IMG/VR virus record: IMGVR_UViG_3300010376_000007
Coordinates: 1-63,879 of that record
Length of the DNA: 63,879 nucleotides
Reading direction: 5' to 3' (one strand)
From: a virus
Taxonomy: Duplodnaviria; Caudoviricetes
Within the stretch, counting starts at the first letter, position 1, and each line of letters opens with the position of its first letter. Below are positions 2,569 through 56,081 of the stretch, piece by piece. The notes beneath the pieces were generated by a model. That model searched no databases and was not told where the DNA came from. It was given only the letters and a program-made list of their open reading frames with translations. Position numbers and translations under genes: made by a program.

Positions 2569-2984
2569 CGCGCCGCCGCCCGTCGTGCAGCCTGGTCGTC
2601 TCGATTGCAGCCCATGCAGCGCCGCTTCCCGTTACTGGGTTGGGTGTAGATGTTACCGGCTACCCACGGATGCAAGCCGCGCACACACAAGCCCCCTCGC
2701 TCACGTGCCCGAGAGTCAGTCCCCCGATACTGATTGACTTTCTTCGACACGTATTCCAGATGATCCGGATTTACACAGCACCGCACGTGGCAGACGTGGT
2801 CGCGCTCAGGGGAGCCCACCGGCAGGGGGGACAGCCACAGGTCGTACACCCGCAGGTTCTTCCTGTTGCGCTTGATTTCGGAGTACCCATTGGACGACAG
2901 CGCACCACCCCACAGCCAGCACCCGGTGTTGGGCTCGAAGCAGATCTTGTCCAAGACGCGGGGCTCGATCTCCGTTACCTGCAT
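2565..2984 (-). CDS. HNH homing endonuclease
   Basis: CWLWGG..NGY, DHVCHVRCCVNPDHLE, C-terminal CVRGLH...CMGC zinc motif; lies between TerL and portal. Confidence 0.9.
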   Translation of the reverse strand: MQVTEIEPRVLDKICFEPNTGCWLWGGALSSNGYSEIKRNRKNLRVYDLWLSPLPVGSPERDHVCHVRCCVNPDHLEYVSKKVNQYRGTDSRARERGGLCVRGLHPWVAGNIYTQPSNGKRRCMGCNRDDQAARRAAAR

Positions 2985-4972
2985 CAGCGTCCTGCCACGG
3001 TCAAGTACGAGGTCGGCTCGTACGAACCGCGCTCATGATAGCTGCGCACCTCCTGCAGGAACATCCGCCCGCGCGCCAGGGGCTGACGCGCCAGCACTTC
3101 GGGTGAGACCGGCTCTTCGAGCACGTCGGGGTCCGCGTCGTAGTCGGGCTCCAGATGCGTGTCGAGGTAGGAGTACGAGTCACTTTCCGGCTCACCCTCG
3201 AAGCGACGCTTGATCCACACGTAGTAACCCCACGCGTCCATGGCGTGGTTCATCCAATCGAGCGGCTTTTCCTTCAGATTCTCCTGATCGTTACGCCGCT
3301 TTGGATACCGGTACGCCTTGGCTTCTGCGATGAAGTTGTGACATCCTTTGTCTATTCTGATCCTGGCGCATGAGCGTAAATAGCTCAGTGTGTCACCGAC
3401 GATATCTTCTTCGTTCAGCCGCTCTTCAACTTCGATGGTCAGCAGGCGTTGTTCCTCGACGGGCATGCCCATGTCGGCGTCTTCGGGCAGCCCTTTGCTG
3501 TCCAGCACGAGGTTGACCATGGAGCGGTAGAAGCGGAAGAAGCGTACCGGGTCGCGCAACTGATTGCGCTGGAACGGGATGCGCTCCATGACCTCGGGCT
3601 TCTTCTCGACGATGTACGCGGGGAAGCCCATGCGCTGCCAGCGGCGCATCTCCTCGGGCTGCGCCGAATCGCAGATCATGTCCGAGATGCCCTCGATGCG
3701 CCACTGCGGCAGCAGCGCGCCGTCGGGCGAGATCTGCTGCGCCTGGATCCAGGGGCGCGAGCAGAGTAGCTCGGCCATCTCTTCGGTGCTCCGGTGGTCC
3801 TCGTAGATCTCGTCGAAGACCACCGTCATGTCGGTGTACTCCTGAATGGCCAGGATGCAGTAGGCGTTCGATCCGCCGGATGGGTCGACCGCCAGAATAA
3901 CCGGGAGGTCGGCATTATATTCAACATCCGTCACATGCACCCGCTCTTTGAACTCGGGGAACACCCGCTCCCGCGCGGCGGCTGGGATACCGCCGAACTG
4001 CTCAAGGAACTCGTACGGCTCCATCTCGCGGGCGGCTTGCTGGAGGGCGGGTGTCTGGCGACCCTGCGGGAAAGCGTAAAAGTTGATCTCGTAGGACGCG
4101 TCTTGGAACATTTCCCACGCCGCCTCGGTGCCGTTGCCGACCATGTCAGCACGAGCGTCGACGGCTTTCTGGTGGAAGAAATCACCTTCGCCTTCCCAGG
4201 AACTGATGAGCAGCGCCTGACCATTACGGTCCGTCAGCGGTGGGAGGATAGCCCGGGACCATGCCTCTGGGTAGATCTGCGCTGCTTCGTCAATGATCGC
4301 CAGGTCGATGGCTGCCCCGGCCGCCGTGTGTACGTCATCGAGTGAGACGCCCTCCAGTCGGGCGCCGTTTTCGAGGATGCACAGCTTCTCCTGATTGGTG
4401 TCCCGGACGACGCGGGTCTTGAACTGGTTGTCTCGGATCGACTGCATGACCTTGTCGAAGGAGCGGCTGACCAGGCGCATCGTCGGCGCCGCCAGCCAGA
4501 TCCAACTTCTTGGCCGCAGGATGGCCACGCCGATGGCTTCCATGGCAGCCTGGGTCGTCTTGCCGCCCCGGCGTCCCCAGGCCGCGATGCGGAAGCGGGC
4601 GCCGGAGCGGGTCAGGGCTTGCTGGCCCGTCCAGTGGCCAGGCATGCCGCGACTGGCCCACGTGGCGGTCTCGTCCTGCAGCGCGTGATACTCCCTGAGC
4701 CGGTCGTCGGCCGACTCGAAGCTGCCCACGTAGCGCACCCGCTCGCGGAGGCTGGCGCGGCCGTCCTCATCCAGCGGCACGTACAGTCCGTGCGGACGGT
4801 ACTTCAGGCGCTCGAACGCCTCGAAGCGCTCCTGGGGGGTGATCGGCAGGAACTGCGAGACGTTGGCCTTGGCGCGGTCTTCCCAGGCTGTCAGCCAGTC
4901 GTTGGGCGAGCCGCCCCTGGCCAGGCGAGAGAAGTCGAGCCCCGCCAGGCCAGGCAGCGTGGTCTGGGGCAA
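2984..4972 (-). CDS. terL: Terminase large subunit
   Basis: Walker A WGRRGGKT, Walker B AIIDEAA, coupling motif LISS, nuclease LAVDPSG and C-terminal NHAMDAWGY. Confidence 0.95.
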   Translation of the reverse strand: MPQTTLPGLAGLDFSRLARGGSPNDWLTAWEDRAKANVSQFLPITPQERFEAFERLKYRPHGLYVPLDEDGRASLRERVRYVGSFESADDRLREYHALQDETATWASRGMPGHWTGQQALTRSGARFRIAAWGRRGGKTTQAAMEAIGVAILRPRSWIWLAAPTMRLVSRSFDKVMQSIRDNQFKTRVVRDTNQEKLCILENGARLEGVSLDDVHTAAGAAIDLAIIDEAAQIYPEAWSRAILPPLTDRNGQALLISSWEGEGDFFHQKAVDARADMVGNGTEAAWEMFQDASYEINFYAFPQGRQTPALQQAAREMEPYEFLEQFGGIPAAARERVFPEFKERVHVTDVEYNADLPVILAVDPSGGSNAYCILAIQEYTDMTVVFDEIYEDHRSTEEMAELLCSRPWIQAQQISPDGALLPQWRIEGISDMICDSAQPEEMRRWQRMGFPAYIVEKKPEVMERIPFQRNQLRDPVRFFRFYRSMVNLVLDSKGLPEDADMGMPVEEQRLLTIEVEERLNEEDIVGDTLSYLRSCARIRIDKGCHNFIAEAKAYRYPKRRNDQENLKEKPLDWMNHAMDAWGYYVWIKRRFEGEPESDSYSYLDTHLEPDYDADPDVLEEPVSPEVLARQPLARGRMFLQEVRSYHERGSYEPTSYLTVAGR

Positions 4973-5311
4973 CTACATCCTGGGCGGCTTACCGGAGCCG
5001 CTCCTTGAGCGCGTACCGGAACTGGCCTTGGCCTTGGCCCGACTGGCAGCCGACGGCTTGGAGCCGGAAGCTTTCTTCTTGACGCCGCCCGACGGCAGCG
5101 AGGACTTCTTCTTGGGCGCGCCGCCGAGGGCGGGCGGCTTGGGCGGCGCGAACGGGTTGCCGCCCATCGGGCCACCGGGCGGCGGCGTCGGGCGCGGCGC
5201 GGGCGGACGCATCGGACCGGGACCGGGGCCTGTCGATCCCGGTGCGCCGAACGGCCCAGGCTGCGCCGCCGGGAAGGGGGGACCCAACGGCGGCTGGCGC
5301 GGGAAGCCCAT
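4973..5311 (-). CDS. Pro-rich, Lys-rich low-complexity protein
   Basis: ATG 5311 overlaps the upstream stop; MGFPRQPPLGPP...KKKSS... Confidence 0.6.
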   Translation of the reverse strand: MGFPRQPPLGPPFPAAQPGPFGAPGSTGPGPGPMRPPAPRPTPPPGGPMGGNPFAPPKPPALGGAPKKKSSLPSGGVKKKASGSKPSAASRAKAKASSGTRSRSGSGKPPRM

Positions 5312-5409
5312 CAGTACTTCTTCCCCTTGGAACTCGGCGTGCCGTGGCTGGAATTGCCCTTGGGCACGCAGCGGCCGCACGAGCCGCCCGACTTACTTGC
5401 TTTTGCCAC
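5311..5409 (-). CDS. Small basic peptide (32 aa)
   Basis: GGAGG 8 nt before GTG; MAKASKSGGSCGRCVPKGNSSHGTPSSKGKKY. Confidence 0.45.
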   Translation of the reverse strand: MAKASKSGGSCGRCVPKGNSSHGTPSSKGKKY

Positions 5410-5548
5410 GCTTGGTACCTCCTGCGTTGGTGATCTTGGCGGCTCTTTCTTTGCCGTACTTGGCCTTGAGCGCCTCGTACTGTTTGGGGTTCTTGACAAA
5501 CCCGCCCCGGGCGGTGGTGAAGCCGCTACCGCTCTTCTTCCAGGGCAT
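5393..5548 (-). CDS. Small basic protein (51 aa)
   Basis: Manual translation MPWKKSGSGFTTARGGFVKNPKQYEALKAKYGKERAAKITNAGGTKRGKSK; abuts the upstream stop. Confidence 0.65.
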   Translation of the reverse strand: MPWKKSGSGFTTARGGFVKNPKQYEALKAKYGKERAAKITNAGGTKRGKSK

Positions 5549-5671
5549 TCAGGCTCTCACATTGATCCACACGATAAACACAGCCAGCAGGATAATCATG
5601 AGCAATAGCGCGATGAAGAAGAAGAGGGCAGGCCCAGACTCGGCCTGGCCTTCTCGATAGGGCTGCTTCAC
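5549..5671 (-). CDS. Small single-TM membrane protein, possible lysis accessory or holin-like
   Basis: GTG start; ...ALFFFIALLLMIILLAVFIVWINVRA; follows the peptidase gene. Confidence 0.45.
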   Translation of the reverse strand: MKQPYREGQAESGPALFFFIALLLMIILLAVFIVWINVRA

Positions 5672-5698
5672 GGTGCATTAGACCCCCTCCAAGCATCG

Positions 5699-6184
5699 CT
5701 AGGTAAGCCATACCACCGAAAAACCGCCCAGCCTCGCAAAATCATCACGTGAAACATTGTCCCACACCGACTTGTAGCCGGGCGCCGAGTTGGCGACCCA
5801 GATCGTGTCGCCCTGCACGCCGCGAATGCCCACCCAGTGATACCACGCTGCGCCGGACATCATGCCAGGCCCATCCATCGCGTGCGCGTACGTCTGGTCG
5901 AAGTCGAGCCAGCCCTGCTCCGAATCCTGGCCATAATCAGACAGCACACGCTGAAGCTGAGCGCCACTGCCGTCCATAAGCCCATAGGTGGAATTGATAT
6001 TGTTCGGATAGCCGATCTCGTAGACGGTGCTTTCGCGCGAGGCATATATGTCTGACGGTACCACCAGCCCGGTGGCGCGCTTGAGCCAGTCCAGGCTGCA
6101 GGCCGAGCAGGTCCAGTCGTACAGTTGCCCGGGCTGTGAGGTCCAGGGGTCGTACCACGCGGCGGGTGGGGGTTCGGCGCCATC
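5699..6184 (-). CDS. C39-like (papain-fold) cysteine peptidase domain, candidate endolysin or maturation protease; probably expressed by +1 frameshift from the upstream ORF
   Basis: QPGQLYDWTCSAC (Cys), WYHWVGIRG (His), IWVANSAPG; the Cys motif lies upstream of the first in-frame start codon (GTG 6064). Confidence 0.7.
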   Translation of the reverse strand, partial: DGAEPPPAAWYDPWTSQPGQLYDWTCSACSLDWLKRATGLVVPSDIYASRESTVYEIGYPNNINSTYGLMDGSGAQLQRVLSDYGQDSEQGWLDFDQTYAHAMDGPGMMSGAAWYHWVGIRGVQGDTIWVANSAPGYKSVWDNVSRDDFARLGGFSVVWLT

Positions 6185-6365
6185 AAAAGGGTGTCCGCTG
6201 GGTGCGGTTGTCCTCCTGATACCAGTAGTACACCCCGTCGGTGGCGAAGGTCATGCTGATCTTGCGGCCCTCGTCAAGCACAATATAGCGCTCGTCGCTC
6301 CTCGGCTCGGCGCCGTTGTCGGCAATCGCCTGGGCGACGCCGGGTCCCACGCTGAAGTCGCTCAT
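6183..6365 (-). CDS. 60-aa protein, putative N-terminal part of the frameshifted peptidase
   Basis: ATGA overlap with the upstream gene; ends CCC TTT TGA. Confidence 0.75.
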   Translation of the reverse strand: MSDFSVGPGVAQAIADNGAEPRSDERYIVLDEGRKISMTFATDGVYYWYQEDNRTQRTPF

Positions 6366-6748
6366 GGTGTCGCTCCCGTAGTCAGCAGCGTGTCGGAGCC
6401 GATCCACGTGTTACCCAGCCCATCGACGCAGTACGCGGCGGTGTGGTACTGGGTGTTGGGCTGCAGATCGTCCCCGCAGATGGTGATCGCGGCGCTGGGG
6501 CCGGGCACAAGCTTGGTCTTACGGTCGTAGCCGTACGCGTTGCGGCCCCACATGATGCCGACCTTCGAGCCGGTGGTCATCGCCGCGTTGCCGGCAGCCA
6601 CCAGGGTGACCGTGGTCGTGGCCGCGTTGCTCTTGACGTTGGTCCACGTCATGGTGGCGAAGCGGCCGACCAGATACGAGTAGTCGGTCGACCAGTCGTA
6701 CATGCTCCAGCCGAATACCCCGGCGGCTTTGCCATTGGCACTCGGCAT
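6362..6748 (-). CDS. Putative virion protein with beta-rich (FN3-like) fold
   Basis: T/A/G-rich; LQPNTQYH resembles the FN3 L-x-P-x-T-x-Y signature. Confidence 0.55.
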   Translation of the reverse strand: MPSANGKAAGVFGWSMYDWSTDYSYLVGRFATMTWTNVKSNAATTTVTLVAAGNAAMTTGSKVGIMWGRNAYGYDRKTKLVPGPSAAITICGDDLQPNTQYHTAAYCVDGLGNTWIGSDTLLTTGATP

Positions 6749-7236
6749 CAGGGTGTCGGGTAGGTGGTCATCTTGGGGTTGTACTGCGCCCAGGTGTAGC
6801 TGGACCAGTTGCCAATACCTGCACCACCGGCGGGGCGGGTGCCGTCACCGAACATGTTCCAGCGCACGGGCACAGCCTTCTGGTTGGCGACGGTGCGCGC
6901 GGCGGAGATGCGCACCGTGCCCTGGTACGGCCGCAGGGTGGGCGGCGGCGCCGTGACGCTGGTGATCTCAAAGCCCATCACCTTGCCCTGCGGGTTGGCG
7001 CTCACCGGGGACAGGGTGTACTGAAAGGTGCGCGTACCGACCGCCGCCGCTGCCTCGGTGCCGCCCGCGCTGACGCTGGGGTTCTGGGTGTCCCAGATCC
7101 TGAAGTTGAGTTGCACCGACTGGTCGGTGGTCACCGAGAAGGTGACCACCGTGCCGGCCGCGTTGGGCGTGGCAATGACGTTGCTGAGCGTGACGAAGCC
7201 CGCCGGTCCCGCCACGATAGCCAGCGGCATGGTCAT
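6748..7236 (-). CDS. Putative virion protein (beta-rich)
   Basis: T/A/V-rich 162 aa; translationally coupled in the late operon. Confidence 0.6.
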   Translation of the reverse strand: MTMPLAIVAGPAGFVTLSNVIATPNAAGTVVTFSVTTDQSVQLNFRIWDTQNPSVSAGGTEAAAAVGTRTFQYTLSPVSANPQGKVMGFEITSVTAPPPTLRPYQGTVRISAARTVANQKAVPVRWNMFGDGTRPAGGAGIGNWSSYTWAQYNPKMTTYPTP

Positions 7237-9984: not shown

Positions 9985-10209
9985 CTAGACTCTATAGCGC
10001 TTGCCGTCGAGCGCGATGGCGGCGTTGACCCACATGCGCGCCTCCTGCAGCTTGCGGACCCCGAGCGTGCGCTCCGCGCTCTCGGGCGCGTGGCCCAGGA
10101 TGGCGTCGTAGGCGATGCGCATCGCCTCCGAGATGGCGCGATAGTGGGCGATGGTCACCGGGTCGTCGGTGCCGATGTAGTCCATCGGGTGGGGGATGTC
10201 TTCGGTCAT
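9985..10209 (-). CDS. Acb2/Tad1-like helical-hairpin protein (candidate cyclic-nucleotide sponge)
   Basis: 74 aa; APESAERTLGVRKLQEARMWVNAAIA matches the family pattern P.sRE.sLA.tKLeEA.MW.N.aIA. Confidence 0.7.
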   Translation of the reverse strand: MTEDIPHPMDYIGTDDPVTIAHYRAISEAMRIAYDAILGHAPESAERTLGVRKLQEARMWVNAAIALDGKRYRV

Positions 10210-48452: not shown

Positions 48453-51400
48453 CTAAGATACGTTCTCCGGTTGTTCTGGGTCCAGGCCCTGGATCTGACG
48501 CAGGCCGACGTACTTCTTGTTGGACACCCGCGACAGGTAGGCCATGTACTCGGCCAGCGTACCCCGATTGTGCTCGTACGCGGGACCCAGCGGGTCGGTC
48601 TCGCCTTTCCACTCGATGAGCGGGCGCGGGTTGGGCACATTCTGGTCGTCGTACGAGGTCTTCTCTTCCTTGGTCAGGCTGTTCCACAACCGGGTCGCCG
48701 CCACGCGCCGGTTCCATTCGTCCTTGGGCAGCACCCCGCCAGGGAACTTCTTGGCGTCGTTCCACTCGTCCAGCGTGCCGTCCTTGAATTGCTTCCACTC
48801 GGTCGGGGTGAGCGCCGAGCCCTCGCCCTCCCACTGGAAGTACGCGTCGCGCTGGGCCGGGGTGATGCTGGGGTCGCGCAGAACTTGCTTGGTCGTCAGC
48901 GCGGTCGCCCGCCGCCTGGCCTCGTCGAGTTGGTTGAGGTGCTCGTCGGGCTTCCAGCCGTACAGCGGGTCGCCCTGGATGTACGTGCTGCCGTGCTTCT
49001 GGTCACGGTTGTTGGCGACCGTCAGTTCCTGATCCCACTTGGCCCAGTCCTGCGCGTTGCCCAGCGGCTGGCCATTCTCGTCGACGTACTTGTAGGCCGT
49101 GACCTTCTGCCTGACCGCCTCAGCCCGGTCGTAAGAAAGCTGATCGGGCGTCTGGTCGGCTACCGGCAGCTTGCGCAACTGGATGCGGCGGGCCAGGTTG
49201 GTCTGGTCGAGTTGCGGCCCGTTCGGGTTGGTGGCGTTGATGGCGTTGACCGTATTCGACAGGTACGTCTCCTTGGCCATGCGCGCCGCGTCGGGCGGCA
49301 GATCCTCCTGGGTCTTGGCGTCTTTGCCCGCGTTGGTGTAGCCGTTGATGATGTCATCAAGCTGGCCGCTGGTGACGCCCGGAATGGGGGGCGGCGCCCC
49401 ATCGCCGTACATCTGCGCCTTGAGCGTGTCCTGCAGCACATCGTAGTCGACGCCGTAGGTCTTGGCCGTGTCGGCCATCCAGCGCTGGCGCTGGTCGGCC
49501 AGTTCGCCCGCCGCGTCCTTACCCGGGTGCGAGGCGAGCCCGCGTCGTCCGCCCGCCTGCAGGTCCGCGACGAGGTTCGGGTCGCGGTTCCAGGCCATGC
49601 GCACGAGGTTCTGCACGTAGTCGCTGGGCTGGCCGGAGGTGTCCAGATCGGCAGGCACGTCGGCCCCCCGGTTGGTGTTCTGGTCGTCCAGCCAGGCGAT
49701 CTCCTGGCGCAGCCGTGCGTCTTCGGGCTGCGTCTCGGGGCTCAGCTTGAGTTTGGCGTCGATCTGGTCCTTGCGGACCTGGCTCTCGGGCTTCTTGTCC
49801 CCCAGCGCGCTGCTGATCGACTTGCCTCGGTCCCCGTACGTAGCGTTGGGATCCTCGACGCCGTTGATCAGATTGGCGATGTGCTGGTCGACGCCCATAT
49901 TGGCGTTGCGGTTGTTGTCGAGGATGGCCTGCCAGTCGCGCGGGTCCTTACCGGCGTCCTTGATGAACTCATCCTGCATGTCGAAGAAGCGTTCGGCTTC
50001 GGTGCCGTGCGACAGCCGCGCGCCCGTGACGGCCGAGCCGAGCGTGGTCTGCCACGGCTCGCCGGTGGTGCCGCCCTTGATGACCTGGGTCACGCCCGTT
50101 GGCAGCATGTGCTGCGCGGCAACGTTGACGCGGTTGATAGCCTGCTGCCAGAACGGATCGTCGTTACGGTCGAGCGGGCGCCCCGCGAAGTCGTGGTCGT
50201 CGAGAAGCTGTGCCGCGCCGGTGCCCAGCATACTGCCGCGCGCCGAGGCGAAGTCCTTCATCCGCTGACCCGGGTCGGGGCGCGGGATGGCCAGCGAGAC
50301 ATCCTCGCCAGGCTTGGGGAAGTAGCCCGCGATGGCGGGGCCACCGGGCAGGCTCATCGGGTCGACTCCGACGCCCTTGGCCGCTGCCACGGTCGAAGCC
50401 CTGCCCAGGTCGATGATGGGCTGCAGCAGGCCCTTGTACGGCCCCAGCACGTCGATGTACGGCGTGAACTTGTTGCCCTTGGAATCGGTCGTCGACCAGC
50501 CAAACTTGTTGTATAGATTGGTGGCGTCGACTTCGAGCACATGATCAGGGTCGTTCTGCCACGAGAAGTGCCCGCCCAGCGCCAGGTTGGAGGCTTCCAG
50601 CAGGAACGCCGACTGCAGCGCGGCGTTGGCCCAGTACTGGCGCGACATCTCGCCGGTGGGGGTGTTGAGCGCAGAGGTGCCGATCAGCCGCGCCCAGGAT
50701 TCGGTCCAGTCGGGCGCCAGCATCGTCAGCCGCATGGCGTCCTGCACCGTGCGCGAGCGGGCGATGGCCTCCAGATTGTTGCCGCCGTAGACCGTGTTGG
50801 CGAACTCGGCAGCCGCCTTGCCGCCGTACTTCGGGGCGTACATCTCGTAGGTGCTGAGCTTCATCATCGGGATGGTCCGGTTCCACAGACCCTCGCTGAT
50901 GGTCTCGACCAGGCTCTTGGTGCCCATACCCCGGAACTGCTGGCCCAGCAGCATGCCAGTGCCCGGCGCCGTGGTCGCCGCACCCATCGCCGCACCGGCC
51001 AGGCCCCACTTGATCTGGTCCTGCACGTCGCCGCCCGCCGCCGCCGACGCTTGCGAGCCCACCAGCGCGCCGCCGCCGACGTTCATCAGCGTGGTGGCGA
51101 TGCGCGCCTTGGTGCCCGTCACGTCGTGCTCCGCCAGGGTGTTCAGCGACAGGCCGTCCTTCATGGCCTGCTCGATCATGCCGCGCGACTTGGCGTCGGA
51201 CATGAAGTTCCTGAACTCGCCCGGGTTGAGGGTGCCCTTGACGATGCTGGACATGTTGCCCAGGCCGCTAGTGCCCTGCGTCGCCCAGTACTGGCGCCAC
51301 TCGTTGGCCATGTGGAACAACGAGCCCGACAGCGTGTTGTGCTTGAGCGCCGCGTTCATCTGCATGACCGGCTGGACCAGATAGCGCAGGCCAGGCGCGT

Positions 51401-54400
51401 TGGCGAAGCCCTGCGGCGAGAACGCGTTCTTGAACACCTCGGCCAGTTCGGGCGAGACGTACGTCTTCTCGGCGCCGAAGACTTCAGCCGCGTACTTGTT
51501 GCCAATACCCGGAATGCTGCCCAGCCAGATCGCGTTGGACGGCGCCTTGGTGCCCTGCGGGATGCGCACCACGTCCTCGCCTGCGAGCATGAAATCGCCC
51601 AGCGTCTTGCCGTACCACTTCGGGTTGTTGATCTGCGCTTGGGCTTCCAGGCCCCCCACCATGTTGTCCAGCGCCTGGGCGCGCAGCCCCGCCGAGTAGT
51701 AGTTGCCCAGTACCTTGGGCAGATCGTCGGAGTATTTCACCCCGGCTGCCATGCCGTCTTCGAGCGTCTCGTGCAGCCGCTCCTGGGTGTAGGTGTAGAA
51801 CGGGTTGGACGACGCGCGACCGGGCTGGTTCCTGCCTCTGCCCAGCTTGACCGCCTGGTCCCAGTCCGACTCGACGGCGTGCGGTACGTACAGCACGGCC
51901 TTGCTGCCGGGCTTGTTGAAGTCGATATCGTTGGGCACAATGTTGAGCCTGGCAAAGTCGTTGGCGACCGTCTTCCACTCGTCGAGTGTTTCCCTGGCAG
52001 CCTTGTAGTCGATGTTGGGGTCGGACAGCATGGCAATCGGCAGCCGACCGGTGCGCTCGATGGTCGCCAGCGTGTTGGCGTCGTAGGCGTACTTGCCCCA
52101 GGTGCGGTACACCCGGTCGCTGAAGTTCCTGCCCGCCTCGATGCCCCAGCCCGTGTCGCCCGCGAACGTCTCCCACATCGAGCGCGCCTTGGGGGTCAGG
52201 TTCATGGTCGGCGCGAAGAACTCGCGCAGCGGCGCCAGAGCCCGGGCGCCAGCGGGCGACTCGATGGCCGCGCTGACGGCCTTGGGGATCATCGCCGCGC
52301 CATGCACCACGGCTGCTGTGGAGCCCAGCCCGAGCAGCGACTTGGTGGCCACGTTGGTGTAGTAGTCCGGGCTGTTGGGGTCCTCGGTGGCCAGGCCGAC
52401 CGCCGCGCCCGCCGCGCCGCCGCCCAGGTCAAGCGCCAGCTTGGTGTTGACCGCCGCTGCCTGCTTGCTGCCCAGGCCCAGCGCGGTGCGGTCCGCCGCC
52501 TGAGCTTCGGGCGCCAGGCCGATCTCGCGCAGCCCGCCAATGCGCTCGCCCAGCGACTGGCCGTAGGCGCCCGCGCGCTCGCTGTCGCCCAGGATGTCCA
52601 TGCCCGCGCCGCGCATGATCGAGTCCGTCTTGTCGAGCACAGTCTGTGCGTCGACGCCGGGGTTGGTGCGCGCGACGGCGTTCATCACCTCGCGCCTGAC
52701 CTGATCGCCCGTCAGCGGCTCGTAGCGCTCGCCCTCCGCCACGGCCTGCGCCGACTGCTCCAGGGTCGAGTCGTTCAGGTCCAGCGCCGCGCGCTGCAGC
52801 ACCGTGCGCGTCTCGTCCTGGGTCAGCGGACGCACGAAGTCGGTGTACTCCGGGGCGTGCTTGGCCACGCCCTCGGCGGCAGCCCTGGCCGCGTCGCCGG
52901 TGAGCACCTGGGGCAGCACCTCGGTGCCGTCGAGGATCACCTTGCCGGCCTTGCCGTACTTGGCGATGCCCGCCGCCGGGTCCACGACCATGGCCAGGTT
53001 CATCGGGTCGGTGACAAACGCGGCGCCCTCGGCAGCCCACTGACCTTCGGGCGAGTCGCGCACCTCGGGCGACTGCATCGCCTGGGCGATGGACTTGCGC
53101 AGATCGCTGTTGGCATCCATCGCTTCGGTGACAAGCTGCGCGCCCTCTGCCGGGTTGAGCACGCCACCGTGGGCCACCTTGTACGAGGCTGGCCGCTGCT
53201 GCGGGTCGGGAGTGCTGATGTTCAGCAGCGTCTGGTTGACCAGATCGGCGTCGTAGCCGTTGTCCTTGAGGTAGCCGAGCGAGTCCGCCACGCCAGGCGC
53301 CAGGATCTGCGCGGGCACAGCGGCGGGTCCGAGCGCGGACAGCGCCTTGCTCTTGGCCATGTCGGCCGCGTACCCGCCCGGGTCCTGCAGCATCTTGGTG
53401 TACTCGTCGACCAGGCCCTGCTGCGCTCCAGTCGCGGCCTGGGTCGCCGCGCCAGTGACCGCCTCGGTTGCCGCTCCTGCTGCCTGGCCAGCCACGTCGG
53501 GGGCACCGCTCAGGTCAACCGGCTGGGCGCCCAGGTCCTGGGCTGCCGCGTGTACGTCACCGGCGGTCTGCGCGACCCCCTGTGCGGCGTCGGCCAGCGG
53601 CGCGCCAGGCTCCGTCTGCATGACCGCCTGGTTGAGGTCCCCTGCTGTGTCGGCCACGTTGCGCGCCGTCTGGCCCGCGATGTCCGCCCCGCCCCGCGCC
53701 ACGGTGCCGAGCCCGCTGAAGACGCCGCCGATCATCGGGCCAGCCGCCTGCGCCACGTCCTGGGCGCCCGACGCCAGTGTCTGGGGCACGGTGCCCTCCT
53801 GCGCGGCCTTATCCAGCGACTCGCCAGGCTTGAGACGGTTGGGCGCGGTCTGCGAGATCGGCTGGCGCGCCGGCACCGACAGCGGCGCGCTCACCGGGTC
53901 GGGGGGCGGCGGGGGTGGCGGCGGCGCCTCGTCGGGCGGCGGCATCTCGGGCGGCGGTGGGCTCAGGTCGGGCGGCGGGGTCACCTCCAGGGGCGGCATC
54001 TCGTCGGGGCGCTTGATGCGCTCGTAGCTGCCAGTGCTGGGGTTCAGGAAGTACTGGTCCTCTTCGTCCTGGCCCGCGCCCACGCGGGCGGAGGGCACAT
54101 AGGTATCGCCGTCCCAGTGGCCTGCCTTCTGGGGGTACTGACCGGCAAACTTGGACTGGTCCGAGAACGTCGGGTGGTTGGGTTTCTTGTACGTGTCCGG
54201 CCAGTGACCCGTCTCGGGATCGGGCCTGATCCCAGCGGCGAACGCGCCGCGCAGATCGTAGTCCCAGCCCGAGTCGCGCGGTGCGTTCTGCGCCTTCCAG
54301 ATCTGGAACGCGGCCTCGCCCTGCGGCGACAGCGGCGTGTCGAGGAACGAATAGTCAGTGTCGTCGTCTTCCTCAGCCTGGGGCGGCGTGCCGCCCAGGT

Positions 54401-56081
54401 GGCGCATCAGGTCCGGGTCGCGCTCGTCGGCGCCCGAGCCCAGATCCGTCTGGTCCTCACCCGAGTGGCCGAGTACCGTGCCGTTGGGCGCGCTGGCCTT
54501 GCCCAGGTCGTCCTTCTTGATGCCCCCGGCGGTGTACAGCGTGACGATCTGGCGCCCATGCTCGACGGTGACCACCCACTCGGTGGGCACATCCTGCGGG
54601 CTGGAGCGCAGCCCGCCGCCCGTCGCGCGGCTGTACAGCGAAGGGTCCACGCCGTTCACGCGGCGGAACTGGGCGCCCGACCACAGCGGGGTGATGTCCA
54701 CGCCGCCGTTGGGGTTGATGCTGGAGTCGTGGACCATCATGCCGTTGCCGGCGTAGATGCCCACGTGCTCCATGTGCGCCCCCTCGCCCATGTTGTAGAA
54801 GACGAGGTCGCCCGGCATGGCATCCTGAGCGCGCACGTTCGAGGTCTGCTGGAACATGCTGCTGGTCTGCGCGGGCAGCGTCAGCCCGGTGGCCTGGTTG
54901 TAGGCCCAGGCCACGAACCCGGAGCAGTCGGAGCCGACGAACTTCGGGTCGAAGTTTGACCGCCCTCCGGCGCCGCCCCACACGTACTTGGAGCCGACCT
55001 GGCCCGCCGCCGTGTCCAGCAGTCCGGTCATGCCTACGCGCTGGGTGTCCTTGTCGACGCCCAGCTTGCTGGGCTTGCTGGGATCCGCCGCCTGGGTGCC
55101 GTCCAGACTGTTGCCGATGCTGATGACCTGATTCGACCAGTTCGGATCGGTGGCGTAGCCCGCGTCGTGGACCATGCGCAGGAAGCCACGCCAGTCGTCA
55201 GGGTTCTGCTTCAGGTACGACATGGCGGGCTGATAGCGCGAGTTCGACTGCAGGAACCGGGCGAAATCGTTGGCCGAATCCTGATAGCCCTGGTACGCCC
55301 GGAAGGTGTCCTGAATGTTGACGCGCTGGCCGTTGACGACTTCCCAGGTGCCGACCTGGCCCGTGTTGGCGCCCGTATCGGGGTTGGAGCCCTTGATGCC
55401 GAAGTAGTTGTTCCCGGCGACAGCCGTGCCCCAGCCCGTCTCGTTGGCGCTCACAGCGACGATGGCCTGCCACGGGATGCCCGTCTTGGCCTGCACCTTC
55501 TCGGCGGCAGGGATGGCCATAGCCGTGAAGTCCTGCTGGCTCTGGGTCCTCGGAGCGCTGCTCGACGAAGACGAAGAGGAGGTGGCACGAGCCGCAGACG
55601 AAGGCCCTTGAGGAGGAGGCGCCGCTTGCCGCGAAGGTGCAGCGCTCTTTGTTACCCCCGTCTGCGGTTGTGCGGTCCGCGCAGCCGTACTCCCGCTCGT
55701 CGCGCGGGGAGCATGATCCGCTGCAGAAGTGGCTGGTGGCGGCGCTTGAGACGATGCGGGGGACTCAGACCCGCTCGGCTCTTCTGAAGTTGTATCAGAA
55801 GATGGGGCAGGCGTCAAAGATTGTGGTGGTACATAGGCATCCGCTGCCCAGCCACCAATCCGGCTCAGATACTCGGGTACCGAGATCCCCTGCGCGACCT
55901 GCTGAGGTGCGTCAGGTTCCTCATCATCCCCCGCGCCCAACTCCATGCCAGGCACCTCCCACGCGCTGCGGATCTTGACTGTGCGATTCGGTCGCGGCGC
56001 CCAGCCGGGCCGAGTACGCGACAGCAGGTTCGGCGTGGGGGAGGTCGCGGGGTCGGTCGCCAGCCAGTCGGGAACTGCCAT
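48453..56081 (-). CDS. Giant internal virion/DNA-ejection protein with GH73 (FlgJ-like) and NlpC/P60 domains
   Basis: ANETGWG..NNYFGIKG...GYATDPNW; YVWGG..SDCSGFV...PGDLVFY..HVGIYAGNGMMVH; long helical body. Confidence 0.85.
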   Translation of the reverse strand: MAVPDWLATDPATSPTPNLLSRTRPGWAPRPNRTVKIRSAWEVPGMELGAGDDEEPDAPQQVAQGISVPEYLSRIGGWAADAYVPPQSLTPAPSSDTTSEEPSGSESPASSQAPPPATSAADHAPRATSGSTAARTAQPQTGVTKSAAPSRQAAPPPQGPSSAARATSSSSSSSSAPRTQSQQDFTAMAIPAAEKVQAKTGIPWQAIVAVSANETGWGTAVAGNNYFGIKGSNPDTGANTGQVGTWEVVNGQRVNIQDTFRAYQGYQDSANDFARFLQSNSRYQPAMSYLKQNPDDWRGFLRMVHDAGYATDPNWSNQVISIGNSLDGTQAADPSKPSKLGVDKDTQRVGMTGLLDTAAGQVGSKYVWGGAGGRSNFDPKFVGSDCSGFVAWAYNQATGLTLPAQTSSMFQQTSNVRAQDAMPGDLVFYNMGEGAHMEHVGIYAGNGMMVHDSSINPNGGVDITPLWSGAQFRRVNGVDPSLYSRATGGGLRSSPQDVPTEWVVTVEHGRQIVTLYTAGGIKKDDLGKASAPNGTVLGHSGEDQTDLGSGADERDPDLMRHLGGTPPQAEEDDDTDYSFLDTPLSPQGEAAFQIWKAQNAPRDSGWDYDLRGAFAAGIRPDPETGHWPDTYKKPNHPTFSDQSKFAGQYPQKAGHWDGDTYVPSARVGAGQDEEDQYFLNPSTGSYERIKRPDEMPPLEVTPPPDLSPPPPEMPPPDEAPPPPPPPPDPVSAPLSVPARQPISQTAPNRLKPGESLDKAAQEGTVPQTLASGAQDVAQAAGPMIGGVFSGLGTVARGGADIAGQTARNVADTAGDLNQAVMQTEPGAPLADAAQGVAQTAGDVHAAAQDLGAQPVDLSGAPDVAGQAAGAATEAVTGAATQAATGAQQGLVDEYTKMLQDPGGYAADMAKSKALSALGPAAVPAQILAPGVADSLGYLKDNGYDADLVNQTLLNISTPDPQQRPASYKVAHGGVLNPAEGAQLVTEAMDANSDLRKSIAQAMQSPEVRDSPEGQWAAEGAAFVTDPMNLAMVVDPAAGIAKYGKAGKVILDGTEVLPQVLTGDAARAAAEGVAKHAPEYTDFVRPLTQDETRTVLQRAALDLNDSTLEQSAQAVAEGERYEPLTGDQVRREVMNAVARTNPGVDAQTVLDKTDSIMRGAGMDILGDSERAGAYGQSLGERIGGLREIGLAPEAQAADRTALGLGSKQAAAVNTKLALDLGGGAAGAAVGLATEDPNSPDYYTNVATKSLLGLGSTAAVVHGAAMIPKAVSAAIESPAGARALAPLREFFAPTMNLTPKARSMWETFAGDTGWGIEAGRNFSDRVYRTWGKYAYDANTLATIERTGRLPIAMLSDPNIDYKAARETLDEWKTVANDFARLNIVPNDIDFNKPGSKAVLYVPHAVESDWDQAVKLGRGRNQPGRASSNPFYTYTQERLHETLEDGMAAGVKYSDDLPKVLGNYYSAGLRAQALDNMVGGLEAQAQINNPKWYGKTLGDFMLAGEDVVRIPQGTKAPSNAIWLGSIPGIGNKYAAEVFGAEKTYVSPELAEVFKNAFSPQGFANAPGLRYLVQPVMQMNAALKHNTLSGSLFHMANEWRQYWATQGTSGLGNMSSIVKGTLNPGEFRNFMSDAKSRGMIEQAMKDGLSLNTLAEHDVTGTKARIATTLMNVGGGALVGSQASAAAGGDVQDQIKWGLAGAAMGAATTAPGTGMLLGQQFRGMGTKSLVETISEGLWNRTIPMMKLSTYEMYAPKYGGKAAAEFANTVYGGNNLEAIARSRTVQDAMRLTMLAPDWTESWARLIGTSALNTPTGEMSRQYWANAALQSAFLLEASNLALGGHFSWQNDPDHVLEVDATNLYNKFGWSTTDSKGNKFTPYIDVLGPYKGLLQPIIDLGRASTVAAAKGVGVDPMSLPGGPAIAGYFPKPGEDVSLAIPRPDPGQRMKDFASARGSMLGTGAAQLLDDHDFAGRPLDRNDDPFWQQAINRVNVAAQHMLPTGVTQVIKGGTTGEPWQTTLGSAVTGARLSHGTEAERFFDMQDEFIKDAGKDPRDWQAILDNNRNANMGVDQHIANLINGVEDPNATYGDRGKSISSALGDKKPESQVRKDQIDAKLKLSPETQPEDARLRQEIAWLDDQNTNRGADVPADLDTSGQPSDYVQNLVRMAWNRDPNLVADLQAGGRRGLASHPGKDAAGELADQRQRWMADTAKTYGVDYDVLQDTLKAQMYGDGAPPPIPGVTSGQLDDIINGYTNAGKDAKTQEDLPPDAARMAKETYLSNTVNAINATNPNGPQLDQTNLARRIQLRKLPVADQTPDQLSYDRAEAVRQKVTAYKYVDENGQPLGNAQDWAKWDQELTVANNRDQKHGSTYIQGDPLYGWKPDEHLNQLDEARRRATALTTKQVLRDPSITPAQRDAYFQWEGEGSALTPTEWKQFKDGTLDEWNDAKKFPGGVLPKDEWNRRVAATRLWNSLTKEEKTSYDDQNVPNPRPLIEWKGETDPLGPAYEHNRGTLAEYMAYLSRVSNKKYVGLRQIQGLDPEQPENVS

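Follow-up and report, generated by a model that had tools for sequence, protein, structure and literature searches.

Among bacteria and phages, programmed +1 frameshifts are a rarity; those studied in detail are found in release factor 2 and in a few structural genes. A conserved frameshift in phage tail assembly chaperone genes, of the lambda G/GT type, was reportedly described by Xu, Hendrix and Duda in 2004. In prfB, the shift takes place at CUU_UGA, where the P-site tRNA slips +1 on NUU_U with UGA in the A site. According to PMC5009743, a minority of species have UUU_U as the RF2 site, and in E. coli RF2 constructs this word worked far less well than CUU_U. For the Listeria phages PSA, A118 and A500, the same source describes a +1 shift at CCC_UGA in the tail shaft gene (tsh) and a +1/-1 shift in the capsid gene. 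Endolysin genes may yield more than one product as well. As given in PMC9430671, Lys170, LysIME-EF1, CTP1L, CD27L and LysP7951 combine the full-length enzyme with extra non-catalytic modules in proportions of 1:3, 2:2 or 1:5; the module is C-terminal, and an internal start codon in the same frame supplies the additional copies. Neither 'frameshift' nor 'slippage' occurs in that paper. Our search of the literature for frameshifts in endolysin or lysin genes found no such case and returned mainly tail or capsid frameshifts. A genome announcement on Streptomyces BI phages (PMC9671017) refers to frameshifts that GeneMark predicted, without verification, for genes in the vicinity of endolysins.

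Here we analyze a locus in a 63,879-nt soil phage sequence (Caudoviricetes; IMG/VR record IMGVR_UViG_3300010376_000007), the whole of which is referred to as the window. Most likely, a programmed +1 frameshift in a phage lysis gene yields two products at this locus, a free, putatively wall-binding module and a fusion of this module with a peptidase. The site resembles that of prfB in that the P-site tRNA would slip +1 on NUU_U with UGA in the A site. Unlike prfB, the phage site has neither an SD-like stimulator at a fixed distance nor a conserved C after UGA, and nothing points to autoregulation. The phage gene is predicted to encode a lysis enzyme, and its zero-frame product is a folded 60-aa domain. 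With the Listeria phages the locus would share a P-site slip beside a stop codon, a short and a C-terminally extended product and, as described for these phages in PMC5009743, relatives that reach the same extension by +1, -1 or in-frame decoding. It differs from them in that tRNA-Phe would slip on UUU after CCC, in that a catalytic peptidase takes the place of a structural or Ig-like extension, and in that the frameshifted gene adjoins a holin-like gene. As in the lambda G/GT system, the putative frameshift lies at a homologous position in very diverged phages, with variation in the slippery word and even in the direction, and a short, here presumably major, product has its N-terminal part in common with a long minor one. 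However, the gene in question probably encodes a lysis enzyme, and the shift is mostly +1 at a stop codon rather than -1 at a heptamer. Like the heteromeric endolysins, a single lysis gene would supply the enzyme together with extra copies of a module, which may form a heteromer. The arrangement would be a mirror image of the internal-start endolysins, with an N-terminal module whose free copy would arise via termination and an enzyme that would arise via frameshift.

Anatomy of the locus

The features of the locus, given by their positions in the window, are as follows:

6186..6365, minus strand: ORF of the 60-aa N-terminal module (MSDFSVGPGV...RTQRTPF), the zero-frame product, delineated by the ORF and by GC3 of 0.8-0.95
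6183..6191, minus strand: shift site CCC UUU UGA, taken from the sequence, in which UUU_U provides UUU in both the zero and the +1 frame
6139..6184, minus strand: acidic and Pro-rich linker in the +1 frame (DGAEPPPAAWYDPWTS), without a start codon, delineated by sequence and GC3
5699..6138, minus strand: C39-like papain-fold cysteine peptidase domain with its stop at 5701-5699, assigned from invariant columns, an AF2 model and fold matches
6127-6125 (Gln), 6109-6107 (Cys), 5839-5837 (His) and 5791-5789 (Asn), minus strand: invariant peptidase residues
5549..5671, minus strand: 40-aa ORF with one strongly hydrophobic segment, a holin-like candidate beginning 28 nt past the peptidase stop

The 60-aa ORF starts at ATG 6365 and its last codons, ACA (6194-6192), CCC (6191-6189) and TTT (6188-6186), are followed by TGA (6185-6183). 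The +1 frame, in which TTT (6187-6185) is followed by GAT (6184-6182), has no stop between about 6253 and 5701-5699, where it ends, and encodes ...GHPFDGAEPPPAAWYDPWTSQPGQLYDWTCSACS...; a +1 slip at the site is predicted to join module and peptidase into a fusion of 221 aa. A computed translation that decodes TTTT as Phe reads this fusion correctly over its first 214 residues, after which a second in-frame TTTT (F215) is shifted too. The first ATG, GTG or TTG of this frame is GTG 6064, located 15 codons past the codon of the conserved Cys. That the 60-aa ORF ends in CCC TTT TGA and that the +1 frame offers no start before the Cys had been claimed in an earlier note on this DNA; we re-derived all of its coordinates and they match.

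Third-position composition changes at the same place. In 20-codon windows, zero-frame GC3 is 0.8-0.95 over 6410 to 6230 and lower afterwards, and +1-frame GC3 is up to 0.85-0.9 from about 6170. GC3 swaps frames at the site, and therefore both stretches look coding, with the switch at the site. The two-frame pattern at the locus is far beyond chance.

The junction in homologous genes

An initial census comprised 80 viral loci. The N-terminal module was present upstream of the peptidase in 58 of them; relative to the module, the peptidase is read in the +1 frame in 48, in the -1 frame in 4 and in the same frame in 6. The final census was compiled from 271 related sequences. Leaving out 143 rows (112 duplicates, 24 without this N-terminal module and 7 without the peptidase part) resulted in 128 distinct junctions, among which 97 need +1, 18 need -1 and 13 are in frame. 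The earlier note had raised the question of whether homologous phages keep the split, and they do so at the same Pro-Phe codons in 115 of the 128 distinct junctions, in sequences down to ~50% identity.

The slip site and the codons needed for it are conserved. The Phe codon is TTT in every one of the 97 distinct +1 junctions, compared with a background TTT use of 36/215 (17%) in these genes. The preceding codon is CCC in 90 of the 97, the background CCC use being 71/234 (30%). The zero-frame stop follows TTT immediately in 50 of these junctions, one codon on in 43 and 2-3 codons on in the remaining 4, so that it is held 0-1 codon from TTT in 93/97. Because TTT is separated from the stop by a sense codon, most often CGN, in 43 of the 97 +1 loci, a stop codon in the A site is not universal.

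Each of the other two classes has its own form of the junction. In the -1 class, CCT TTY is found at 11 of the 18 junctions, and the -1 loci for which the preceding base is listed have C_CCU_UUY in 10 cases out of 11. All 13 in-frame junctions retain CCCTTTY, even though this means rare codons, together with TGA in the -1 frame. Continuous natural homologs of 219-223 aa (P0005, P0008, P0017, P0018, P0024 and P0095) have the two parts joined exactly at ...PF. Lower-GC relatives with a different N-terminal domain have the slip word C_CCA_AAA. Counted on a quick tree, the frame relation switched 21 times among four classes, and the in-frame class arose at least three times.

Neither blastn nor tblastn matched the region to any of 50,697 phage records. 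Relatives of these phages were found in Chloroflexota genome bins.

Signals around the shift site

The likeness to prfB drawn in the earlier note holds for the slip beside UGA and fails for the upstream Shine-Dalgarno stimulator. An SD-like word within 18 nt upstream of the site is present in just 12 of 82 +1 loci, at variable spacing; in the window, AGGAGG (6217-6212) lies 23 nt before the UUU codon. There is no conserved C after UGA at these 82 loci, the commonest base being G (35/82). A search for a stimulatory RNA fold was likewise negative, as the mean MFE of the 60-nt windows directly past the site (-16 to -18 kcal/mol) is not below that of the rest of the genes. An MFE dip at +60 to +80 falls in the region coding for the conserved Cys motif. 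Rfam produced no match at E 1 for window positions 5400-6800, and no tRNA genes were found in the window.

The peptidase and its lysis context

Four residues, Q21, C27, H117 and N133, are invariant across 23 peptidase sequences and constitute the predicted catalytic set. P0018, one of the naturally fused homologs, was modeled by AF2 with pLDDT of 92.9. Foldseek matches of the peptidase model span E-values from 5e-6 to 1e-5, PeiR (8z4h) being matched at 5e-6 (5.3e-6), and VIA aligned the model with 6mpz (Z 15.5, rmsd 2.5, 134 residues aligned) and with 8z4h (Z 13.7). Based on these models, we assign the long product with high confidence to C39-like papain-fold peptidases. The 'cysteine peptidase' label of the earlier note is borne out by this fold and by the invariant Gln, Cys, His and Asn.

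For the peptidase protein of the window, Pfam returned no family at E 0.1, Peptidase_C39 and Peptidase_C39_2 included; neither Pfam nor PHROGs yielded a family for the module or the peptidase part, and profile searches of PDB sequences gave chance-level matches only. A distant relative, P0174, scores 23.6 bits with Peptidase_C39_2, just below the cut-off of 24. The fold is like that of the PCAT/ComA double-glycine peptidase domains and of PeiR, a pseudomurein endoisopeptidase (VIA Z 15.5, 14.0, 13.7 and 13.4), whereas sequence identity to the solved C39-like chains is only 14-19%. Unlike in C39 leader-peptide processing, the context of the window peptidase points to a cell-wall substrate.

In 67 of 83 relatives, the peptidase is followed within 150 nt by the start of a small ORF that contains a 19-aa hydrophobic window, compared with 3 of 335 control positions. 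In addition, relatives of the peptidase domain are fused to GH25 (muramidase), glucosaminidase, SLT, SH3 and YqbQ-like parts. The earlier note had left the choice between an endolysin and a maturation protease. The former is favored because of the membrane-protein gene downstream, the cell-wall-hydrolase domain partners and the occurrence of the module on GH25 and SLT enzymes, so that the product of the peptidase gene is probably the endolysin. We rejected a maturation protease on the same grounds of context, namely the holin-like neighbor and the hydrolase partners.

The 60-aa N-terminal module

The AF2 model of the module (pLDDT 93.2) consists of a small helix and a four-stranded beta-meander, and the 60-aa product ends exactly at the last strand. 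Mean column identity is 66% over 44 aligned relatives. The module is present also on GH25 and SLT enzymes; in SLT enzymes that carry it C-terminally, an in-frame Met precedes it in 5 of 7 cases. As for the DNA of the GH25- and SLT-linked modules, scans with single proteins found none, and scans with alignments mostly returned the same peptidase contigs.

The best VIA match of the module is 6swz. Z is 6.4 (rmsd 2.4, 55 residues aligned) when the module is compared by itself and 7.0 when it is part of the full model, only about one Z unit above unrelated beta-propeller blades. The structure 6swz is the C-terminal domain of C. glutamicum mycoloyltransferase A, which presumably consists of LGFP repeats, the cell-wall anchoring repeat that we take to be Pfam PF08310. 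None of the 44 module sequences matches the Pfam LGFP model at E 10, Foldseek returned nothing for the module at E 0.001 or better, and a module profile search of PDB sequences produced chance-level matches only. On the basis of domain shuffling and the weak fold match (Z 6.4-7.0), the module is putatively wall-binding.

Complex prediction with four copies of the module scored 0.58 (0.01, 0.59 and 0.58 in individual runs), compared with 0.02 for the best control. Of 30 proteins with structures solved as pairs, 20 attain the mark used for this score, as does 1 of 23 single-chain structures. Contacts agree between the runs to at least 7%, with partner pLDDT of at least 61. The model supports binding between copies without proving it, and the predicted self-association is head to tail.

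Alternative explanations

The TTTT homopolymer at the site is the type of place where indel errors arise, and the split might accordingly be an artifact of sequencing or assembly, mark a dead gene or result from transcriptional slippage along the T run instead of a ribosomal event. We consider this highly improbable. An indel had been named in the earlier note as a possible cause of the split, but independent contigs show none at the site, and the frameshift reading stands. A contig from an independent assembly of the likely source run (X1; 15,012 nt, depth 25.9) has no gaps across 5600-6500, X3 record 22, which is 151 nt long and comes from another sample, does not differ from the window at 6077-6227, and a contig from a third study (X4 record 28), although 12% diverged, has no gaps over 6048-6253. 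Moreover, the split is repeated in 115 distinct junctions from many metagenomes. Coding-type GC3 is kept in both frames, and the run itself is short, with four T here and just three in the CCC TTT CGN variant. Polymerase slippage is known from far longer runs. Only slightly less improbable, in our view, is that the two parts are separate genes and that the peptidase is translated from its own internal or non-canonical start. An ATG nine codons before the Cys is indeed present in 48 of 90 split loci (compared with 1 of 10 in-frame loci), and therefore some relatives could also start the peptidase alone. Many gene models of 145-148 aa begin there, and in L075, a distant relative, the peptidase has its own ATG overlapping the upstream stop. 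However, the window and 26 others of the 90 split loci, 27 in total, lack any ATG, GTG or TTG from the site to the Cys. A loose SD pattern before the ATG was seen in just 2 of the first 45 distinct junctions. The residues encoded upstream of it in the peptidase frame, including a W/Y-D-P-W-like motif that precedes any possible Met, are kept in 79 of 90 split relatives, and no stop interrupts the peptidase frame back beyond the Pro-Phe codons in any of the 83 split loci examined. Independent initiation also gives no reason for the exclusive use of TTT at the +1 junctions (97/97 against 17%), and the natural fusions are joined exactly at PF.

A somewhat more serious alternative, though still rather unlikely, is that the frameshift is real yet merely tolerated: an ancestral one-base indel at the slippery CCCUUUU would be corrected by slippage, and the 60-aa protein would be a by-product. 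Translational correction of 'savior' indels is a known use of frameshifting according to the abstract of PMC5009743. No stimulator was found among SD-like words, MFE values or Rfam families, and the 13 in-frame lineages as well as the in-frame GH25 fusions function without a forced split. The same lineages and fusions weaken the claim that an excess of the free module is essential. On the other hand, the split form makes up the large majority of junctions (115/128) down to ~50% identity, the zero-frame stop stays 0-1 codon from the site in 93 of 97 +1 loci, and all 13 in-frame loci have the rare codons that preserve CCCTTTY and the -1-frame TGA. The module, moreover, is predicted to fold by itself, its end coincides with its last strand, and the model supports its self-association.

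Proposed mechanism

More than 100 related phages keep the slip site at the same spot, so it looks like a deliberate production of a short and a long protein from one gene. The +1 frameshift at CCC-UUU-UGA proposed in the earlier note is supported by the intact sequence, by the split kept in homologs and by the +1 frame having no start before the Cys. According to this scheme, ribosomes would start at ATG 6365 and make the 60-aa module. Most of them would stop at UGA 6185-6183 and release it as a free protein, which would make the short product the major one. With UGA in the A site, tRNA-Phe could slip +1 from UUU 6188-6186 to the overlapping UUU 6187-6185. GAU would then be read next, followed by the Pro-rich linker and the C39-like peptidase, resulting in the 221-aa fusion. 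We infer that the slip is ribosomal. Its efficiency would set the ratio of the free to the enzyme-bearing module, and this ratio may serve to ration the enzyme.

A more far-reaching version of the programmed frameshift can be put forward only tentatively, and we regard it as rather doubtful. CCCUUUY might be a two-way frameshift hub that is under selection in all frame arrangements, with both proteins made everywhere and a ring-like multi-module endolysin as the outcome. Where the enzyme is in the +1 or -1 frame, a slip would produce the fusion. Where the enzyme is in frame, a -1 slip on C_CCU_UUY would meet the conserved TGA and produce the free module. The free module and the fusion would then co-assemble head to tail, with stoichiometry set by slip efficiency.

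Significance

Gene callers split or truncate this gene, many of their 145-148-aa models starting nine residues before the Cys, so the architecture of the lysin family is mis-annotated. With its roughly 100 distinct +1 sites, and with sister lineages that are -1 or in frame at identical nucleotides, the family would provide a large, naturally replicated set. Such a set would be unusually well suited to finding out why UUU_UGA or UUU_CGN shifts when no stimulator is obvious. If the proposed frameshift is true, the idea of the multi-subunit endolysin would widen from internal starts to recoding.

The joint between module and peptidase

The gene lies on the minus strand, and checking of its ORFs and frames bore out all coordinates of the earlier note:

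6365-6183 (-), 60-aa module ORF, from ATG 6365 to TGA 6185-6183; C-terminus ...RTQRTPF, last codons ACA CCC TTT TGA
~6253-5699 (-), +1 peptidase frame, open from ~6253 to the stop at 5701-5699; reads ...GHPFDGAEPPPAAWYDPWTSQPGQLYDWTCSACS...

In windows of 20 codons, third-position GC of the module frame is 0.8-0.95 from 6410 to 6230 and falls afterwards, while that of the +1 frame climbs to 0.85-0.9 from ~6170. As the values are high in each frame in turn, both pieces look coding, with the switch at TTTT. The third frame, which holds an ATG overlapping the module stop (TGATG), displays no coding signal. The absence of a canonical start ahead of the catalytic Cys, claimed previously, also held: the earliest ATG/GTG/TTG of the +1 frame is GTG 6064, 15 codons past the conserved Cys codon (6109-6107). 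Standard decoding cannot yield the peptidase from this gene, and the word at the joint (CCC TTT TGA, 6191-6183) permits perfect re-pairing of tRNA-Phe one base forward with the stop codon in the A site.

Where the module encodes its conserved Y-Q/E-E-D-N there is a perfect AGGAGG (6217-6212, minus strand), 23 nt upstream of the UUU codon, a distance exceeding the spacings known for prfB or dnaX. It is followed by no start codon and may be a simple consequence of the Glu-Asp codons.

Conservation of the joint in related loci

Among 578 candidates, 564 were relatives of the +1-frame protein at E 0.001 or better, and they fell into three length classes. Proteins of ~145-148 aa begin with MPGQLYDW or MSQPGQ, nine to eleven residues ahead of the Cys. 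Those of ~168-177 aa begin with the last part of the 60-aa ORF read out of frame; therefore, their contigs have the same split. In the third class (219-223 aa) the 60-aa part runs on without interruption into the peptidase at ...R-x-P-F, which shows that both are parts of a single protein.

Scanning viral, metagenome and genome collections yielded 270 loci of relatives. Of the first 80 viral loci, 58 have the module just upstream, with the peptidase frame at +1 in 48, at -1 in four and the same in six. For the final count the window was added, and rows were dropped if they were duplicates (identical over 220 nt around the joint; 112 rows), lacked the module (24) or lacked the peptidase part (7). 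The resulting 128 distinct junctions comprise 97 of the +1 type (window included), 18 of the -1 type and 13 in frame, so that the split is kept at the same site in most related sequences, as the earlier note had proposed to examine.

All 97 junctions of the +1 class encode the Phe at the joint by TTT, and 90/97 have CCC as the codon before it, against a background in the same genes (first 43 distinct +1 junctions) of 36 TTT among 215 Phe codons and 71 CCC among 234 Pro codons, these junctions being kin sequences and not independent events. Wobble positions near the site vary freely and TTT is constant. The zero-frame stop directly follows TTT in 50/97 and comes one codon later in 43/97 (for instance CCC TTT CGN with TGA or TAG); in the remaining 4/97 the delay is two or three codons. 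The -1 class has CCT TTY in 11 of its 18 junctions and the less canonical GCT TTY in the other seven; where the preceding base was listed, 10/11 loci carry C_CCU_UUY, the classical X_XXY_YYZ word. All 13 in-frame junctions contain the heptamer CCCTTTY, with a -1-frame TGA zero or one codon beyond. Thus, the nucleotide word persists even at junctions from which the peptidase is reached without it. What is conserved at the joint is the nucleotide word, beyond mere amino acids.

The frame relations were mapped as four classes (+1 followed at once by the stop, +1 with the stop further on, -1, in frame) onto a quick maximum-likelihood tree of 93 rows having SH-aLRT support only. This tree requires 21 class changes; over 200 shuffles the mean was 42.7, and no shuffle needed so few. 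It implies a minimum of three origins of in-frame forms and, counting well-supported branches, a minimum of four of -1 forms. The site has been retained through repeated switches of the frame relation.

Some relatives carry other upstream domains. Six lower-GC loci (GC 0.47-0.53; L034, L039, L040, L045, L046 and L050; about four distinct sequences by reading of the stretches) have a different N-terminal domain (...ITQLQQQQSLFTAAL...) that ends ...SLPKG-stop. They are split by -1 at C CCA AAA GGG TAA, which contains a heptamer of the classical -1 type and lies ~60 nt ahead of the peptidase match. Outside this set, loci with the same type of N-domain are mostly in frame. In loci L063 and L073 (~2900-3030) a third kind of upstream ORF ends ...GSYVASDE-stop and the peptidase lies one base forward; a slippery word is absent at this upstream stop. 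In locus L075 (~2960) the peptidase has a separate ATG that overlaps the stop of the upstream ORF (ATGA).

Proposed frameshifting and alternative explanations

The slip would be made by the ribosome, with termination as the major outcome, and the short and long products would work together. In the CCC UUU CGN stop variant, the slip would be from UUU to UUC ahead of an Arg codon; the same word is used by influenza A PA-X and plant amalgaviruses. As for stimulators, no conserved SD-like word was found upstream (12/82 +1 loci), downstream folding was not unusual and there was no Rfam match.

An assembly artefact of this soil metagenome, such as an indel at the T run, is an unlikely alternative. 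Three separate contigs (X1, X3 and X4) list no insertion or deletion there, which argues against an indel, a concern raised in the earlier note. Spanning 5600-6500, an independently assembled contig of the likely source run (X1; 15,012 nt, depth 25.9) has one letter different and no gaps. Contig X3 (record 22; 151 nt, another sample) matches 6077-6227 exactly, and X4 (record 28; a third study), which is 12% diverged, crosses 6048-6253 without gaps. It is also possible that in relatives the peptidase has a start of its own, at an internal Met that many of them could use. An ATG nine codons ahead of the Cys occurs in 48 of the 90 split loci with a recognisable Cys motif versus only 1/10 in-frame loci. 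This counts against a pure frameshift picture, and some relatives may also make free peptidase from that ATG. A loose SD pattern precedes it in only two of the first 45 distinct junctions. A W/Y-D-P-W-like motif 5' of this ATG is conserved in the peptidase frame in 79/90 loci, and that frame is open backwards over the Pro-Phe codons in 83/83 split loci of the tree set. In the window and 26 others (27/90) the interval from joint to Cys contains no ATG, GTG or TTG. The split itself is dispensable, as shown by the in-frame lineages in which module and peptidase are joined.

The 60-aa module

Modelled alone (pLDDT 93.2), the module forms a short helix and a four-stranded meander, ending exactly at ...PF. 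Structurally it comes closest to the wall-anchoring C-terminal domain of mycoloyltransferase A from C. glutamicum (Z 6.4, rmsd 2.4, 55 aligned; Z 7.0 within the full model), only ~1 Z above beta-propeller blades. Foldseek and Pfam yielded nothing for the module. In view of these blanks and the slim margin, the modelled fold match is a lead only.

The distribution of the module is stronger evidence. It is N-terminal in GH25 muramidases (P0284, P0285 and P0287; GH25-type set P0284-P0287) and C-terminal in SLT-type enzymes (P0279, P0282, P0283 and relatives; SLT-type set P0279-P0283, P0288 and P0290). Shuffled among three kinds of wall hydrolases at either end, it appears to behave like a wall-binding or targeting domain. 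An in-frame Met two to four residues ahead of the module, present in 5/7 aligned SLT-type proteins, is what would be expected if the free module had its own internal start. A four-copy complex prediction gave a head-to-tail interface with a score of 0.58 (runs 0.01, 0.59 and 0.58) versus 0.02 for the best control, a mark reached by 20/30 pair-solved and 1/23 single-chain proteins in a calibration on two copies, not four. Contacts in these runs agree by at least 7%, and partner pLDDT is at least 61. The model supports possible self-binding. A weak point of the proposed scheme is the support for the wall-binding and heteromer ideas, which comes from shuffling of the domain, a fold match that is weak and a single complex score from a model.

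Peptidase, putative lysis cassette and possible host

Neither the module nor the peptidase part matched Pfam or PHROG models. We modelled P0018, a natural continuous fusion of the two, with AlphaFold2 (63 aligned rows; mean pLDDT 92.9). In structure comparison with VIA and Foldseek, residues 67-220 match C39-like papain-fold peptidases.

Structural matches of the P0018 model
6mpz (double-glycine protease): Z 15.5, rmsd 2.5, 134 aligned
PCAT1: Z 14.0
PeiR (pseudomurein endoisopeptidase): Z 13.7; Foldseek E 5.3e-6
ComA: Z 13.4

The invariant residues of the peptidase are Gln21, Cys27, His117 and Asn133. Scanning of 30 long distant relatives of the domain for partners revealed seven SLT-type, two GH25, one glucosaminidase, three YqbQ-like phage tail part, one SH3, one weak GH19 and one TIR; one was just below the Peptidase_C39_2 cut-off and thirteen had no family. 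Partners of this kind point to a cell-wall hydrolase.

Within 150 nt 3' of the peptidase, 67/83 loci have the start of a small ORF containing a strongly hydrophobic stretch of 19 residues, versus 3/335 upstream control positions; its counterpart in the window is the 40-aa ORF 5671-5549. The entire window is a phage genome, with a major head protein, DNA polymerase, helicase, primase and collagen-repeat fibre.

Features of the window around and beyond the peptidase
2984-4972, large terminase
4973-5380 and 5393-5548 (-), two ORFs between terminase and holin-like ORF: a 51-aa DUF7218 protein (Pfam E 1e-7) and a 135-aa Pro/Gly-rich basic ORF, no family
5671-5549 (-), 40-aa hydrophobic ORF (holin-like candidate) downstream of the peptidase
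9985-10209 (-), 74-aa ORF, Acb2/Tad1 hairpin domain (Pfam E 4.7e-7, 30.3 bits, cut-off 27)
48453-56081 (-), 2542-aa protein, glucosaminidase and NlpC/P60 domains
58179-63335 (-), 1718-aa protein, M23 peptidase domain

No ORF was recognised as a small terminase subunit. The two giant proteins probably belong to the virion or are ejected, and would breach the wall at entry; they would be distinct from the lysis peptidase. The 74-aa ORF may encode an anti-defence nucleotide sponge.

Peptidase relatives also occur in genome bins (L161-L163) labelled Gemmatimonadales (39.7-kb contig), Chloroflexota (110-kb contig) and Chloroflexia (1.12-Mb contig); on the latter two contigs the gene is in frame with the other type of N-domain. 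The Gemmatimonadales-bin relative has the same junction as locus L013, and its contig is probably a binned phage. The bin labels are a hint to the host (range) of the phage group.

Relation to known systems

According to the review PMC5009743, UUU_U, the word at the window joint, is a natural minority word at the RF2 site, used in some species; in E. coli constructs it is far less efficient than CUU_U. The same review describes a +1 shift at CCC_UGA in Listeria phages and relatives that may reach the same extension by +1, -1 or in-frame decoding. A search of full-text literature found no frameshift in an endolysin gene, and in the accessible portion of PMC9430671, on two-polypeptide endolysins, neither 'frameshift' nor 'slippage' appears. 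The slip type has precedents; in the literature searched, its occurrence in this class of gene and with this functional logic is not described. We file the locus as a putative conserved programmed frameshift, mostly +1, that would join a shuffled 60-aa module to the C39-like peptidase of a phage lysis cassette.
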